Positions 2,835-29,906 of a DNA stretch of 64,000 nucleotides are shown here, piece after piece. The translations under genes were made by a program, and so were the position numbers. Origin of the DNA: a candidate division FCPU426 bacterium (GTDB taxonomy: Bacteria > Oederibacteriota > Muellerivitia > Muellerivitales > Muellerivitaceae). The notes under the pieces are model-generated. The model was not told the origin of the DNA, ran no database searches, and saw nothing but the letters and a program-made list of their open reading frames with translations. Where the stretch lies: assembly GCA_963719085.1 (NCBI GenBank), contig CAVRAL010000004.1, positions 800,001-864,000 on the forward strand, written 5' to 3'. Numbering within the stretch: the first letter of the stretch is position 1; each line of letters opens with the position of its first letter.

Positions 2835-4910
2835 TTGAGTCAGTCCGCCGAGAACCCCCAACACACCAATCGTTTGATCCATGAGAAAAGCCCCTACCTG
2901 CTCCAACATGCCCACAATCCGGTGGATTGGTATCCTTGGGGCGAGGAGGCTTTTGAGAAGGCCCGCCAAGAAAACAAACCGGTTTTTATTTCCATCGGCT
3001 ATTCCACCTGCCATTGGTGCCACGTGATGGAACGGGAAAGTTTTGAGAATGAGGCCATCGCCAAACGGCTCAACGATGATTTCGTCTGTATCAAGGTGGA
3101 TCGGGAAGAGCGCCCGGACGTCGACCAGATTTATATGAACGCGGTCATGCTTTTGGCGGGCCAGGGAGGCTGGCCCCTCAATATGTTTCTCACCCCCGGC
3201 CTTAAGCCTTTTTATGGTGGAACCTATTTCGCGCCCGACAGCCGCTACGGCCGGCCGGGATTCCCGGCCGTGTTGGCGGATGTGGCCCGGCTTTGGAAAA
3301 CCCAGCCGGAAGAAGTGGAAAAGGCCGGCGCCCAATTGGCCGGGTTCATCGCCAAGGGAAACGCCGCCCCGCCCGCGGGGACCTTAAGCGAAACAACGCT
3401 TCAACAGGTGCGGCAGTACGCTCTGGCTTCCTTCGATTCCAAAGATGGGGGCTTTCGAAGCGCGCCTAAGTTTCCGCCTTCCATGTTGATTGGATTTTTG
3501 CTCCGGCTTTACGCCAAGACAAAAGACGAGACTTTGCTTCCGCTTGTTGCCACCACGCTCGACAAAATGGCCCAGGGCGGGATTTATGACCAGGTGGGCG
3601 GCGGGTTCGCCCGTTACTCCACCGACGATGAATGGCTGGTCCCGCATTTTGAGAAGATGCTTTACGACAACGCGCTTTTGTCGAAAGTTTACTTGGAAGC
3701 TTTCCAAGTCACCCAAAATCCCGAGTACGCCCGGATCGCGCGGGAAACCTTCACGTATCTTTTGCGGGACATGCGGGCGCCCGAGGGCGGCTTTTACAGC
3801 GCGGAGGACGCGGACAGCGAGGGGGAAGAAGGAAAGTTTTATGTTTGGACACCCGATGAAATTGAGCAGGTCTTAGGCCCGGAAGACGGCCGGCTTTTCA
3901 GCCAGCTCTACGATGTGACGCCCCACGGCAATTTTGAGGAAGGCAAAAGCATCCTGCGCCTCAAAAGCGACCTGCCCTATTCGCTCTCGGCTTTCGGCAA
4001 GGATGAGGCTTGGTGGAAGGGCGCCCAAGAAAAAATGCTTCAAGCCCGCGCCAAACGGATCCGGCCCCATCTGGACGATAAAATCCTCACGGCCTGGAAC
4101 AGCCTGCTGATTTCCTCGCTTTGCGCCGGCTATCAAATTTTAGGCGACGAGGTTTATTTGAAGGCGGCGGAAAAGGCCGCCAACTTCCTGACCAAAAACC
4201 TTTTCGAGAACGGAAGGTTGTTGGCGTCTTACCGTAAAGGACCCTCCAATATCCAAGCCTATATCGATGATTACGCTTTTTTCCAGGCCGCCTTGTTGGA
4301 CCTTTACGAAAGCACCTTTGAGGTTTCTTATCTCAAAAAGGCGCTGGTTCTGGAATCCGAAATGGTCCGTCTTTTCTGGGATGAGAAAGACGGGGCCTTC
4401 TTTTTTACCGGCGCCGATCAAAAGGACCGGGAGCGGCTCTTGGCCCGTTCCAAAGAAGCTTATGACGGCGTGATCCCCTCGGGCAATTCGGTGGCGGCGC
4501 TGAACTACTTCCGGCTGGCCGAATTCACGGGCAAAAAAGAAATGCGGGACCGCGCGGACGCCATTTTGAAATGCTTCTCGGGTCTTTTGACCCAGGGCGG
4601 CGCCAATTTCGCCCGCATGCTCCAGGCCTTTCAATTCGACTTTTATGGTCCCGCGGAGATTTTCGTGACCGGTCCCCCGGAGGCCTCCCGGGAAATGGTG
4701 AAGGCGATTTGGAAAGCCTTCCTGCCCAATAAGGTCCTGGTTTTCGCCGAGGAATCCCAATCGAAGGATTTGGCCACGGTCGCGCCCTGGGTCGAAGGCC
4801 GTGTGCCCCAAGGGGGAAAGCCCACCGCCTATATTTGCCGGAACTACACCTGCCAACTGCCCGTGACCGATAGCGTCAAGGCCCTGGAACACCTGAACTC
4901 CCTCGCCTAA
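2835..4910 (+). CDS. YyaL/SSP411-type thioredoxin-domain protein (DUF255 plus alpha/alpha toroid)
   Basis: [37 protein letters not shown] and [12 protein letters not shown]. Start moved to the TTG at 2835 after AGGAAGG. Confidence 0.93.
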
Positions 4911-24289: not shown

Positions 24290-25396
24290 ATGCGTTACCG
24301 TTGGCTGGGCAATACCGGATTGAACATCAGTGAAATCGGGTTCGGCGCTTGGGCCATCGGCGGCAGTTGGTGGGGGCCGCAGGATGATCAGGACTCCCGG
24401 TTGGCGCTTCATCAAGCCTTGGATCAGGGCATTAATTTTATCGACACGGCCTGGGTTTACGGCGACGGCCACAGCGAAAAGCTGATCGGTTCGGTTTTAA
24501 AAGAGCGGCATGAGAAGCCGGTCATCGCCACGAAGGTTCCCCCCATGACTTGGAACTGGGAAGGGCCGGCGGGAACGCCCTTGTCCGCCGCCTTTCCCAT
24601 AAATTGGGTGAAGGCCAAGGTGGAAGAATCGCTCACGCATTTGGGGGTGGAAACGCTGGATGTGCTTCAACTGCACACCTGGTTGGCCGAATGGAACAGC
24701 CAAGCCGGGCCCTTGATGGACGCCGTGGCGCGGTTGAAACAGCAAGGTAAGATCCGCGCCTTTGGCTTATCCCTCAAGGATAAAGAGCCCGATTCCGCTA
24801 ACGACCTCATCCGCTGGCGGCAGATCGACACCCTCCAGGTTTTTTTCAATTTGCTTTACCAAGAACCCATCGAAAAACTTTTTCCCCTGGCGGGCCGCTA
24901 TGGCGTGGGCATCATCGCCCGCGTGCCTTTGGCCTTCGGGGCCCTGAGCGGGCGTTTTAACGCCTCCACGAAGTTCATCGGGGACGACCACCGCTCCCGG
25001 CTTTATGTCGGGAACGATTTGAAGACGACCTTAAAAAAAGTGAAGAAGCTGGAATTTCTCGCGTCCCGTTCCATGCCCCTGGCCGAGGCCGCTTTGAAAT
25101 GGACCTTGGCTTACCCCGAAGTTTCCACCGCGATCCCCGGAATCCGAAATCCCCGGCAGGCCCGGATCAACAGCCTGGCGGGCGACGGCGCGCGGGTTCC
25201 CTTAGCGGCGGCCCGCAAAGCCCAAGGCCTTTACTCGAAAAATTTCGGCCTGCCGGTCATGAAAGCGGCCTCGCTGGACCCGATCCCGGCGGTCTTCATT
25301 TCGGGGGTAAAGCTATTGAGTCCGCCGAAGGGGAAAAAAATAAAGAAAGCCTCCAAACCGCCTAAAAAGCTTAAGAAAAAGAAAAATAAGAAATGA
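24290..25396 (+). CDS. Aldo/keto reductase with a Lys-rich C-terminal tail
   Basis: LGNTGL.ISEIGFGAW, GINFIDTAWVYGDGHSE and ATK. Confidence 0.93.
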   Translation: MRYRWLGNTGLNISEIGFGAWAIGGSWWGPQDDQDSRLALHQALDQGINFIDTAWVYGDGHSEKLIGSVLKERHEKPVIATKVPPMTWNWEGPAGTPLSAAFPINWVKAKVEESLTHLGVETLDVLQLHTWLAEWNSQAGPLMDAVARLKQQGKIRAFGLSLKDKEPDSANDLIRWRQIDTLQVFFNLLYQEPIEKLFPLAGRYGVGIIARVPLAFGALSGRFNASTKFIGDDHRSRLYVGNDLKTTLKKVKKLEFLASRSMPLAEAALKWTLAYPEVSTAIPGIRNPRQARINSLAGDGARVPLAAARKAQGLYSKNFGLPVMKAASLDPIPAVFISGVKLLSPPKGKKIKKASKPPKKLKKKKNKK

Positions 25397-26724: not shown

Positions 26725-26832
26725 ACCACAGAGTGAACAGAGTTACTCAGAGTTTTAAAAACAAAACTATCTTGAGATTCAGATAAATAATCATGTTTTC
26801 ACGCCGAGTAACTCCGTGTAACTCTGTGGTGA
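26725..26832. repeat. Intergenic palindromic element, family B, copy 1
   Basis: ACCACAGAGTGAACAGAGTTACTCAGAG ... GAGTAACTCCGTGTAACTCTGTGGTGA. Confidence 0.85.
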
Positions 26833-26847
26833 AATTGTTTAGGTTGA

Positions 26848-27828
26848 TCATCGGTCGAAAAACCCCAACTGCTCGCCTTGAAGCTGGGTCTTCCATTTGT
26901 TTTTTAACTTCCATTTGCGCCGAAAACCTTCCAGCCTTTCTCGCAAGTTCGCGAGGTAGGCCTCATCCGGATGGGCGTTGCCCCGGTAAAGGCGGATGGT
27001 TTTCTCAAAAAGTCCCCGGTCCCGGGCTTTGAGCGTTTGAAAATAATAGCCCCGCACCACTTGTCCCCGCAGGCGAAGAAGATTGTAGACGAAATAATCC
27101 ACGTCAATTTCCTTGGCGACCTTGACCATGCCTTCCAGCGCCTCGTCGCTGTCGGTGACGAAAGGGATGACCGGCATCAAATGGATGCCGCAGGGAATGC
27201 CGTGGGCCTTGAGTTGGCGCAAAGCTTCCAGGCGCCGGGAAATGGGGACGGCGTGGGGCTCTAAAAATTTTTGTAAGGAAGGGTCCAAGGTGGTCAGGGT
27301 CATGGCCACGCCCCCATTGGAGCGGTCCACCACTTCTTTTAAGACGTCCAAGTCCCGCAGGACCAAGTCGGACTTGGTGGAAAAGACCGCGGGCCAGGCG
27401 TATTTGGCGAAAAGTTTGAAGGCGCCCCGGGCCAGCCGGTATTTTTTCTCGGCGGGTTGGTAAGGGTCGGTGGCCGCTCCCAGACTCACCCAGGCGCGGG
27501 AACGTTTCGGATTGGCGAGTTCTTTTTCCAAGACTTCCAGGATATTGACCTTCACTTGGATCTTGCGTTGGAAATCAAAGGAATTTTGGAAGCCTAAATA
27601 CCAATGGGTGTAGCGGGCGAAACAATAAGGACAGCCGTGCCGGCAGCCCCGGTATAAATTCAAACTGTAGTCATAAGGCTTGGGGCCATAGGGAAGCCGG
27701 GTGTGGTGCAGGGCCGTCTTGACCTTGATCTCGATATACTCCACCTGGCTCGGGTCATTGTCGGGCTCGACAAAAGACGGCGAAAAACGGGTGGTGGGCT
27801 CGCCCGAGTTAAAGGGCGGGTGATTCAT
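26848..27828 (-). CDS. SplB-like radical SAM protein, probably DNA repair
   Basis: NLYRGCRHGCPYCFAR, TDPYQPAE, TKSDLVLRD and EP.A...RR. Confidence 0.9.
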   Translation of the reverse strand: MNHPPFNSGEPTTRFSPSFVEPDNDPSQVEYIEIKVKTALHHTRLPYGPKPYDYSLNLYRGCRHGCPYCFARYTHWYLGFQNSFDFQRKIQVKVNILEVLEKELANPKRSRAWVSLGAATDPYQPAEKKYRLARGAFKLFAKYAWPAVFSTKSDLVLRDLDVLKEVVDRSNGGVAMTLTTLDPSLQKFLEPHAVPISRRLEALRQLKAHGIPCGIHLMPVIPFVTDSDEALEGMVKVAKEIDVDYFVYNLLRLRGQVVRGYYFQTLKARDRGLFEKTIRLYRGNAHPDEAYLANLRERLEGFRRKWKLKNKWKTQLQGEQLGFFDR

Positions 27829-28312
27829 CGCTGGCGGGCCGGCGGTCGCGGTAGTAGAAAAAAAGCGAAGGCGCGTGGGCCGGGTGAATTTTCAATTGGG
27901 CTTGGAGCCGCTCGGCGTTTTGAAGAAAGTCCCGGGTGGACTCGGTGAGTTTTTCCGGGGTGATCAAGCGGATCCATTGCAGTTCATCGTCCCAGGAAAA
28001 GGCTCCCTGGCCGGGCCCGGCGGTTTTTTCTTTTAAGAAACCCAGGAAGTCGGATAAGGCCGGCATGGATTGAAGCTTCACCCGCAAAAAAAAGCCCTCG
28101 GACCAGATAAGGAAATCCATGATTTTATATTGGTCTAAAAGCTGGCCCTGGGTGAGCGCTTGGATCAAGCGGTAAGCTTGGGGCAGGTCGGACAGCCAGG
28201 GAGCGGCGTTTTTAGTTTTGAGCGAGACTTCGTAAGTTAAGTCTTTTGGGGAAAAGCTCGAATAAGGCTTGGCGTCTTCCCGCGCGATCAAGGTTGAGCT
28301 TAAAGTAGACAT
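27809..28312 (-). CDS. RAYT/IS200 (Y1 HUH) transposase-fold protein lacking the catalytic residues
   Basis: Colinear with the RAYT pattern, but the HUH position reads GFF and the YIxxNP position reads DFLQNA; RBS AAAGGA. Confidence 0.6.
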   Translation of the reverse strand: MSTLSSTLIAREDAKPYSSFSPKDLTYEVSLKTKNAAPWLSDLPQAYRLIQALTQGQLLDQYKIMDFLIWSEGFFLRVKLQSMPALSDFLGFLKEKTAGPGQGAFSWDDELQWIRLITPEKLTESTRDFLQNAERLQAQLKIHPAHAPSLFFYYRDRRPASDESPAL

Positions 28313-28358
28313 GGGATTTCCTTTATTGAAGATTCTACTCCCCATAAAAGCCATCGTA

Positions 28359-28439
28359 ATGAACGCCGATAAACGCTGATCTAAAACTGCAGAGGATTTT
28401 GTTTTTTTACCATCCGCCTTTATCGGCGTTCATCATTGC
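28359..28439. repeat. Intergenic palindromic element, family A, copy 6
   Basis: Perfect 15-bp inverted repeat ATGAACGCCGATAAA (28359-28373) / TTTATCGGCGTTCAT (28419-28433), followed by CATTGC. Confidence 0.87.
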
Positions 28440-28473
28440 TCCATAAGGTTTTGATTCAGAGACTATGAAGAAA

Positions 28474-29091
28474 TCAGCGGGGGCTGAAAACGCCGACGAC
28501 TTTTCCCACGACCCTGAAATCTTGGCTTTCGGAAACGATAATGGGTTGGTATTTGGGGTTGGCCGGTTCCAGCCAAACCCGGGCTCCGGATTTACGGAAG
28601 GTTTTCACCGTGGCTTCGCCGTCGACCAAGGCCACCACAATCTCGCCGGGATTGGCGTGGGCGGTTTGCTGCACGATCAGTTTATCGCCGGGCAAAATAT
28701 GGGCGTTGATCATGGAATCGCCTTTGACCACCAGCGCGAACAAGGTGCGGCCGCCTCGGGCGAGGGACGGGTCCACCACCATGGTGCTGTCCCGATTTTC
28801 CACGGCCAGCAAGGGAAGCCCCGCGGCCACCTTACCTAATATAGGAATCGAAATTCCAACGGAAGAGTCATCGGACAAACGCAGTCCGCGGGCCGTGTGT
28901 TCCTCGCGTTCTAAATAGCCTTTTTCTTCCAGCGCCAAAAGATGCTTGCGCGCGCTTTGCGGGGAGTTCCATTTAAAGTGGCGCATGACTTCGCGCACGG
29001 TGGGCGGGCGGTGGTCGTCCATCAAATGCTGCTGCACATACTCAAGCACCAGCCGCTGGGTATCGGTTAAGGTTTCTTCGGAAGGGGCCAT
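28474..29091 (-). CDS. lexA: SOS repressor LexA
   Basis: PPTVRE winged helix, VAAG cleavage site, GDSM (catalytic Ser) and ATVK (catalytic Lys). Confidence 0.97.
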   Translation of the reverse strand: MAPSEETLTDTQRLVLEYVQQHLMDDHRPPTVREVMRHFKWNSPQSARKHLLALEEKGYLEREEHTARGLRLSDDSSVGISIPILGKVAAGLPLLAVENRDSTMVVDPSLARGGRTLFALVVKGDSMINAHILPGDKLIVQQTAHANPGEIVVALVDGEATVKTFRKSGARVWLEPANPKYQPIIVSESQDFRVVGKVVGVFSPR

Positions 29092-29112: not shown

Positions 29113-29163
29113 CTTGAAAAGAATACTCTTGTATACTAGTATACGCCCGTATTCTTGGTCAAG
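29113..29163. promoter_or_regulatory. Overlapping divergent lexA/radC promoters with two candidate LexA boxes
   Basis: Plus strand TTGAAA-N17-TAGTAT; minus strand TTGACC-N18-TAGTAT; boxes GAATAC-TCTT-GTATAC (29121-29136) and GTATAC-GCCC-GTATTC (29139-29154). Confidence 0.65.
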
Positions 29164-29180: not shown

Positions 29181-29906
29181 ATGACCCCTCTTTCCCTTGA
29201 AAAACAAGCCGATTCCACGCCGGGGGCTCCGGATGCGCCGGATTATCAGGGGCACCGCCAACGCCTCCGGGCCAAGTACGCTTTGTCGGGGGCTGAGGCC
29301 CTCCAAGATTACGAGCTGTTGGAGCTGATCCTTTCTTTTTCCATCCCGCACCGGGACACCAAGCCCTACGCCAAAAAATTGCTGGCGGCTTTTAAAAACT
29401 TAAAATCCATCTTGGAAGCCGATCTGGCCTCGCTTCAAAACTTGGGGGATTTGCCGCCCCAAAGCGCCCTTCAAGTGAAAGCCATGGGGGATCTTTTTAG
29501 GCTGCAGGCCCGCGAGGCTTTTAAGCGCGGGACGGTTTTAGGAAGCCCGGGGGAAGCGGCGTCTTTTTTCAGGGCCCAACTCGGAAGCCGGCCCAAAGAG
29601 GCTTTCGCGGCTTTTTTCTTGGATCACCGCAACCATTTGATCGCCTTTGAGATTTTGCAGCAAGGAACGGTGGACCAAACCGCCGTTTATCCCCGGGAAG
29701 TTTTAAAGCGCGCGCTCGACCTTCACGCCAGCGGCCTCATTTTGACGCACAACCATCCGGGCGGAAGTTTAGAGGCGTCCGAAGGCGACCGCCACCTGAC
29801 CCGGCAGCTTTCCACGGCCGCGCGGGCCATGGGGCTCACCATTCATGATCATTTAATCGTTACGGCGGAAGGGCATTTTTCGTTCCGGCAAGCGGGACTG
29901 CTGTAA
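29181..29906 (+). CDS. radC: RadC family JAB-domain protein
   Basis: GHRQRLR, DYELLEL, GTVD...VYPREV, HNHPGG...S..D and HDHLIV. Confidence 0.95.
   Translation: MTPLSLEKQADSTPGAPDAPDYQGHRQRLRAKYALSGAEALQDYELLELILSFSIPHRDTKPYAKKLLAAFKNLKSILEADLASLQNLGDLPPQSALQVKAMGDLFRLQAREAFKRGTVLGSPGEAASFFRAQLGSRPKEAFAAFFLDHRNHLIAFEILQQGTVDQTAVYPREVLKRALDLHASGLILTHNHPGGSLEASEGDRHLTRQLSTAARAMGLTIHDHLIVTAEGHFSFRQAGLL

Follow-up and report, generated by a model that had tools for sequence, protein, structure and literature searches.

A lexA-linked protein family with a predicted Y1-transposase-like fold and no HUH or catalytic tyrosine residues in a family of FCPU426 bacteria

A stretch of 64,000 nucleotides from a candidate division FCPU426 bacterium of the family Muellerivitaceae (hereafter the window; assembly GCA_963719085.1, contig CAVRAL010000004.1, positions 800,001 to 864,000) carries a small open reading frame (ORF) of 167 amino acids between lexA and a gene for a SplB-like radical S-adenosylmethionine (SAM) protein. 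Comparison with related genomes reveals that this ORF is a constrained gene held in a constant position behind lexA, and structure prediction gives its product a fold akin to that of the Y1 transposases, a group that includes the transposases associated with repetitive extragenic palindromic (REP) elements, the RAYTs. The histidines of the HUH motif and the catalytic tyrosine that define these enzymes are absent in the aligned register. The account that fits best, favoured with a little less than even confidence, is that the ORF encodes a LexA-controlled, non-catalytic SOS protein exapted from a Y1 transposase and acting on single-stranded or hairpin DNA at sites of damage. It is known that SOS regulons acquire effectors peculiar to single lineages; among domesticated Y1 transposases, the RAYTs are the standard example.

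Conservation and control of the lexA-linked ORF

The 167-amino-acid ORF is a real gene under constraint. The layout described in the original prediction was confirmed throughout: the frame has a ribosome-binding site, is co-oriented with lexA, overlaps the start codon of the radical SAM gene by 20 nucleotides at its 3′ end, and has a palindromic repeat that begins 47 nucleotides upstream of its own start codon. Ribosome-binding sites of the AGGAG/GGAGG type precede the ORF in relatives too. The ratio of non-synonymous to synonymous substitution rates (dN/dS), suggested at the outset as a check, was calculated against a metagenome locus with a 93% identical ORF protein and is 0.12–0.15 for the ORF, indicating purifying selection; lexA and the radical SAM gene have values of 0.03 and 0.09, respectively. 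The ORF is present as a single copy in its own genome (3.04 Mb, 99% complete), in 22 of the other 30 family genomes and in none of the 68 genomes from 22 other families (99 genomes of the phylum altogether), and it is maintained by selection in at least 13 genera. Orthologs that were missing or frameshifted in relatives had been named as grounds for abandoning the idea of a functional gene; instead, the reading frame is intact in 22 of the 23 genomes that carry it. At G090:C11:35571-35983 the ORF is split between two neighbouring matches that lie in different frames and cover profile positions 22–102 and 99–158, through either a frameshift or an assembly error.

A word-indexed search recovered 13 homologues of the ORF, none of them named, and no family member that was scanned matched a family in Pfam, NCBIfam or PHROGs. 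An HMMER profile search of 1.84 billion representative proteins gave 20 matches at an expectation value (E) of ≤0.001 and returned no Y1_Tnp-like protein. These 20 include three long proteins, P0028, P0031 and P0030 (3206 amino acids), of which at least two are spurious: P0028 and P0031 were considered as fused forms of the ORF and rejected, being repeat-rich, adhesin-like proteins matched through a short low-complexity stretch.

The genes and sites discussed here are as follows, with positions counted from the first letter of the window.

28474..29091, minus strand: lexA, 205 amino acids, first gene of the operon (TIGR00498, 197.5 bits against a cut-off of 110.95; Pfam LexA_DNA_bind and Peptidase_S24)
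27809..28312, minus strand: the 167-amino-acid ORF, second gene of the operon; founds a new family whose predicted fold resembles that of Y1 transposases and RAYTs, with neither HUH nor catalytic Tyr
26848..27828, minus strand: SplB-like radical SAM gene, 326 amino acids, third gene of the operon; Rv2578c/PA0069-type, of the COG1533 kind (PF04055, E 1.3e-13)
28317..28324, minus strand: ribosome-binding site AAAGGAAA of the ORF, 4–11 nucleotides ahead of the ATG at 28312, read from the sequence
29119..29156, unstranded: candidate LexA operator, a composite palindrome of two ATAC-N4-GTAT boxes (29123-29134 and 29141-29152)
29133..29162, minus strand: sigma-70-like lexA promoter (TTGACC, 18 nucleotides, TAGTAT; 9/12 matches in a consensus scan), overlapping the operator
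29181..29906, plus strand: radC, encoding a RadC-like JAB domain (PF04002, E 3.7e-38), divergent from lexA with the operator common to both
28359..28433, unstranded: REP-like palindromic element in the lexA-ORF spacer, with arms of 22 nucleotides (28359-28380 and 28412-28433) that are 91% complementary and enclose a 31-nucleotide loop
26737..26827, unstranded: second palindromic repeat element, inverted repeats between the convergent radical SAM and NYN genes

Conservation of the gene order across relatives had been suggested as a check, and it holds fully for the first part of the order and incompletely for the second. lexA lies directly upstream of the ORF at 18 of 18 genome loci and at 18 of 18 further loci (36/36), the latter partly duplicating the former, and the radical SAM gene comes next at 12 and 16 of these respectively (28/36). 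Since every one of the 18 genome loci has lexA before the ORF and the radical SAM gene is variably present, the invariant unit is lexA plus the ORF. Family genomes without the ORF show either lexA followed by the radical SAM gene (G013, G009) or lexA with neither (G010). The ORF and the radical SAM gene are thus independent, dispensable additions. Translational coupling between the two was considered as a conserved trait and rejected, as they overlap only within the genus of the window (by 20 and 4 nucleotides) and elsewhere are separated by gaps of 7–45 nucleotides, with one of 234. The distance from the lexA stop codon to the start of the ORF match is approximately 50–145 nucleotides at 16 of 17 relatives’ loci, 264 nucleotides at L018 and 161 nucleotides in the window, where a consensus scan of the spacer found no promoter-like site for the ORF. 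Co-transcription of the ORF with lexA is considered probable.

Upstream of lexA, all 18 genome loci carry the arrangement GAATAC-N4-GTATAC-TA-GTATAC-N4-GTATTC, i.e., two ATAC-N4-GTAT boxes, and in most of them TTGAC is found just upstream of the boxes. The 3.04 Mb genome contains just 11 ATAC-N4-GTAT sites, and single boxes stand approximately 62 nucleotides ahead of recA and 35 nucleotides ahead of a RadA-like gene whose domains indicate RadA/Sms (G000:C5:62075 and G000:C4:9997). The doubled boxes overlap promoter-like sites of both lexA and radC (the radC site on the plus strand at 29114-29142), these being consensus matches, which are not proof of function. A divergent radC is also present in relatives, and L018 has one additional box within the lexA-ORF spacer. 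The proposal that the ORF sits in a damage-inducible operon is strengthened by the doubled operator at every lexA locus and its recurrence as single boxes before recA and the RadA-like gene. ATAC-N4-GTAT is accordingly put forward as a candidate LexA box of this lineage; a full-text literature search for the motif string found no paper. The assignment of the ORF to a LexA-controlled operon of the SOS regulon, with predicted LexA binding, is supported by these sequence patterns. Elsewhere, splB and radC are reported as SOS genes (PMC8565304).

Predicted fold and catalytic positions

An AlphaFold2 model built from a 14-sequence alignment (predicted local distance difference test score, pLDDT, 73.1; predicted template-modelling score, pTM, 0.68) runs in the order strand-helix-strand-strand-helix-strand-long helix-strand, and contains the four-stranded sheet, two helices and C-terminal helix characteristic of the Y1 fold. 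When this model was compared with 48,161 representative chains the top three matches were Y1 transposases, the best being a REP-binding protein, and in a second structure comparison against 998 chains ranks 1–10 were again Y1 transposases. Foldseek ranks 1–12 are all IS200/IS605 TnpA or RAYT proteins. A look-alike in a language-model atlas, the rank 2 cluster with a score of 0.88 and 46% PF01797 members, is treated as a lead only. The predicted fold of the ORF product is therefore supported as Y1-transposase/RAYT-like at the level of the model.

The catalytic residues expected of such a fold are missing. The original prediction held that both HUH histidines and the catalytic Tyr had been replaced, and this stands for all 54 distinct family sequences in the aligned register. 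Position 73 is Gly in 54/54, position 75 is F, L, Y, S or R (His in 0/54), and position 128 is L, D, S, R, A and others (Tyr in 0/54). The HUH register was taken from the sole stretch aligned by hhalign together with strand positions in the model. That for position 128 was taken from the distance between W and N, which at 25 equals the distance in the aligned RAYT-like proteins, together with the predicted helix; the reference Tyr is the Y of the RYI..NP motif in 10 RAYT-like sequences. Conservation lies elsewhere: E28, G73 and R77 are invariant (54/54 for G73 and R77), and Y27, W70, W107, W113, R115 and F129 nearly so. If the fold assignment is right, HUH chemistry would have been lost across the whole family.

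The family is set apart from its closest structural counterparts by more than these substitutions. Unlike RAYT/TnpA-REP proteins (E. coli structure 4er8, PF01797), which have the HUH motif and catalytic Tyr, the ORF has no conserved flanking REP and is fixed in a lexA operon. The matches to IS200/IS605 TnpA proteins (IS608, ISDra2) span the core alone (model residues ~19-124), and the ORF differs from these in lacking their catalytic residues, transposon ends and a tnpB partner, and in being non-mobile, occupying the same place in 36 loci.

Possible roles and competing explanations

If the catalytic machinery is gone, what might such a protein do? RecA-stimulated cleavage of LexA would free the doubled ATAC-N4-GTAT operator, and the ORF protein would then be produced along with new LexA and, where its gene is present, the radical SAM enzyme. 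It would act without catalysis, through a conserved aromatic, arginine-rich face of the β-sheet (Y27, E28, W70, G73, R77, W107, R115). The most likely ligand would be DNA laid bare at sites of damage in single-stranded or hairpin form, and repair there would thereby be helped or gated. The parts of this account are not equally secure. Descent of the protein from a Y1 transposase is an evenly balanced proposition. The fuller history, in which a Y1/RAYT-type transposase was captured behind lexA in the family ancestor, lost its HUH residues, Tyr and positive charge and became a fixed, selected SOS effector, is offered tentatively, and DNA as the ligand is a possibility held with slightly less assurance still.

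Several observations weigh against this explanation, and those concerning ancestry are considered here together with the alternative that they favour, namely that the ORF encodes an ordinary ferredoxin-like (β-α-β-β-α-β) SOS accessory protein with no transposase in its past. Its RAYT likeness would then have arisen by convergence, the fold being a very common one with a C-terminal helix added, and to speak of a dead HUH protein would be meaningless. The statistics behind the Foldseek matches are weak (E 6e-3 to 2e-2, template-modelling scores 0.38–0.46). A model predicted from the single sequence gives generic ferredoxin-like matches only, fitting TftG, Lrp/AsnC, ribosomal S6 and NusG-N at least as well as transposases. 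None of 16 family members matches PF01797 at E ≤1, and a profile search of PDB sequences yielded rows at chance level only (a dynein regulatory protein at E 0.006, isocitrate dehydrogenase at E 0.7). For profile-profile comparison by hhalign, 10 RAYT-like and 8 IS200-type proteins were drawn from genomes of this phylum; the family aligned to the RAYT-like set with a probability of 0.2% (E 0.26–0.31), and its scores of 12.8 for the RAYT-like and 16.3 for the IS200-type proteins are judged no better than that of an unrelated radical SAM control (13.5). With the family scans empty and hhalign at control level, sequence homology to Y1 transposases is rejected, and the RAYT motifs that had been aligned by eye from end to end of the ORF are without statistical support. 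Even so, the sole stretch that hhalign aligns places W70-S-E-G73-F-F75 on M-P-N-H-V-H and LS..FL on LS, in the register originally proposed. The structure and profile searches suggested as a check thus divide, the former returning Y1 proteins at all of Foldseek ranks 1–12 and the latter nothing beyond the control. Nor does the genome of the window hold a PF01797 Y1_Tnp gene that might be a recent source. Such genes are nevertheless common in the phylum (62 of 81 genomes), and it is the better, alignment-based model that places Y1 transposases first in both chain comparisons, with Foldseek independently recovering the same family and the atlas lead in agreement. An origin unconnected with transposases is for these reasons considered rather unlikely. 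Many of the Y1_Tnp matches in the phylum lie in open frames of approximately 310–380 amino acids with long C-terminal extensions.

A second group of contrary observations bears on the ligand and on the bond with the radical SAM gene. The family is near-neutral (median isoelectric point, pI, 6.5; median net charge −0.5), whereas RAYT-like proteins of the same phylum are strongly basic (pI 9.7, net charge +12.5), as are IS200-type proteins (pI 9.4, +6). The loss of strong positive charge weakens the case for DNA binding having been kept, and the hairpin or single-stranded DNA binding originally envisaged suffers accordingly. At 6 of the 18 genome loci the ORF is present with no radical SAM gene at that place, four of these having a convergent NYN gene immediately after the ORF. 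The gene is also dispensable, having no counterpart in G009, G010 and G013, family genomes that are 97–99% complete. The main rival explanation is that the SOS effector works through protein contacts and not DNA, as a SulA-like division checkpoint or a modulator of RecA or LexA, with the fold as a mere scaffold. In favour of this, lexA is the sole invariant neighbour, the radical SAM gene being optional, and the ORF evolves much faster than its neighbours (29–68% protein identity across 17 relatives’ loci, compared with 72–94% for LexA). The range of one family, the near-neutral charge and an N-terminal tail that is disordered in the model but contains conserved E12 and Y17 point the same way. 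The ORF resembles the SOS division inhibitors whose genes neighbour lexA, SulA among them, in its size class of approximately 160–170 amino acids, cytoplasmic nature, narrow lineage range and fast evolution, and the genome has FtsZ and no match to the SulA family. In Pseudomonas, sulA occupies the same position directly after lexA, and the genes for YneA, ChiZ and DivS adjoin lexA in a lineage-specific manner. On the other hand, SulA (PF03846) has no match in the ORF (Pfam, E ≤1) any more than in the genome, the Pfam scan of the ORF being empty, and SulA has a RecA-like fold, unlike the ferredoxin-like/Y1-like fold predicted here. Most known division inhibitors other than SulA are small membrane proteins, and the model shows no membrane segment. 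The conserved aromatic and Arg residues of strands 1, 3 and 4 look more like the face of a nucleic-acid-binding sheet than like an ordinary protein interface. Action through protein contacts is judged unlikely, if less so than a fold without transposase ancestry.

A further proposal was that the ORF regulates or handles the abundant intergenic palindromes, as RAYTs do for REPs. The spacer element behind lexA is one copy of a dispersed family with 7 arm copies in the window and 41 genome-wide (≤3 mismatches), and a 16-mer from it has 95 copies (≤2 mismatches); as RNA the window spacer is predicted to fold with −49.8 kcal/mol (z −4.9). A dispersed palindrome so close to the ORF start, this abundance, and a REP-binding protein as best structural match all speak for such a role. 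However, the locus with the 93% identical ORF has a different palindrome in the same spacer, with CGCCAAGA-type arms, and in most other relatives the spacer is short and holds nothing comparable. Copy number is likewise independent of the gene: G013 (99% complete) and G015 have 79 and 46 repeat copies without the ORF, and G001, G002 and G017 have 3, 6 and 8 with it. Because the element is not conserved at the site and the counts do not follow the gene, the idea of a palindrome regulator is rejected, and such a function appears very improbable.

The spacer itself merits comment. Comparison of the window (28313-28473) with L056 (344-531) and L049 (~2119-2230) revealed arms of the GATGAACGCCGATAAA type in the window and in G013, and octamer arms of the CGCCAAGA type in L056. 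REP-like elements appear to have landed repeatedly in the spacer after lexA. The second repeat element, at 26737-26827, has 18 arm copies in the genome (≤3 mismatches), and the genome is rich in REP-like palindromes despite its lack of a PF01797 match.

Returning to the proposed non-catalytic SOS protein with a probable transposase-like fold, a functional precedent may be found by analogy in stand-alone ImuB-C. These small non-catalytic proteins are reported to have genes that share operons with those of LexA and SplB-like radical SAM enzymes, and it was proposed that they serve as a module for damage recognition or recruitment (Aravind et al., 2013; PMC3765255). The ORF product is likewise small and apparently non-catalytic, and its gene likewise accompanies lexA and one for a SplB-like radical SAM protein. 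ImuB-C is described as having approximately 80 residues, mainly β-strands, a possibly SH3-like structure and a conserved C-terminal Trp (PMC3765255), and this published description sets it apart from the ORF, with its 167 residues and α+β model. Pfam and family scans of ORF members found no sequence relation between the two. A full-text literature search, conducted mostly at the level of listings and abstracts, turned up no account of a Y1-fold protein that lacks the motifs and is linked to LexA. In a survey of HuH endonucleases from 2018, sequences without the core motifs were excluded as probably non-functional (PMC6006769).

Neighbouring genes and significance for the family

The radical SAM gene scores 210.5 bits with NF038135 and 209.3 bits with NF033668, below the respective cut-offs of 430 and 360, and can therefore be described as related to the Rv2578c/PA0069 families but not as an equivalog of either. 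Its CxxxCxxC motif (C62, C66, C69) is invariant in 14 sequences. An NYN-domain gene is convergent on it in the window. Further along, the ORF at 24290-25396 has a lysine-rich C-terminal tail ending in KKIKKASKPPKKLKKKKNKK, and the corresponding ORFs of L018 and L052 have a similar tail. Outside the window, a well-formed box of the form GTATAC-N4-GTATTC at G000:C4:890757 (position 2062 of locus L044) precedes an ORF of 285 amino acids with no Pfam match and then a DUF5131 gene (genes at 2096-2953 and 2962-3702), a possible further SOS operon.

The practical reach of the lexA-linked protein is limited, since it is restricted to one family of uncultured soil bacteria and is dispensable in some of its members. 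If the tentative history of a transposase captured behind lexA is true, it would be the first catalytically dead HUH-fold protein in a LexA regulon, and during DNA damage it would sense or guard single-stranded or hairpin DNA, or else work as a checkpoint protein. Should the ancestry hold, the family would provide a clear-cut case of a transposase scaffold put to new use after losing its chemistry. It offers a testable candidate for one step in how an uncultured phylum responds to DNA damage.

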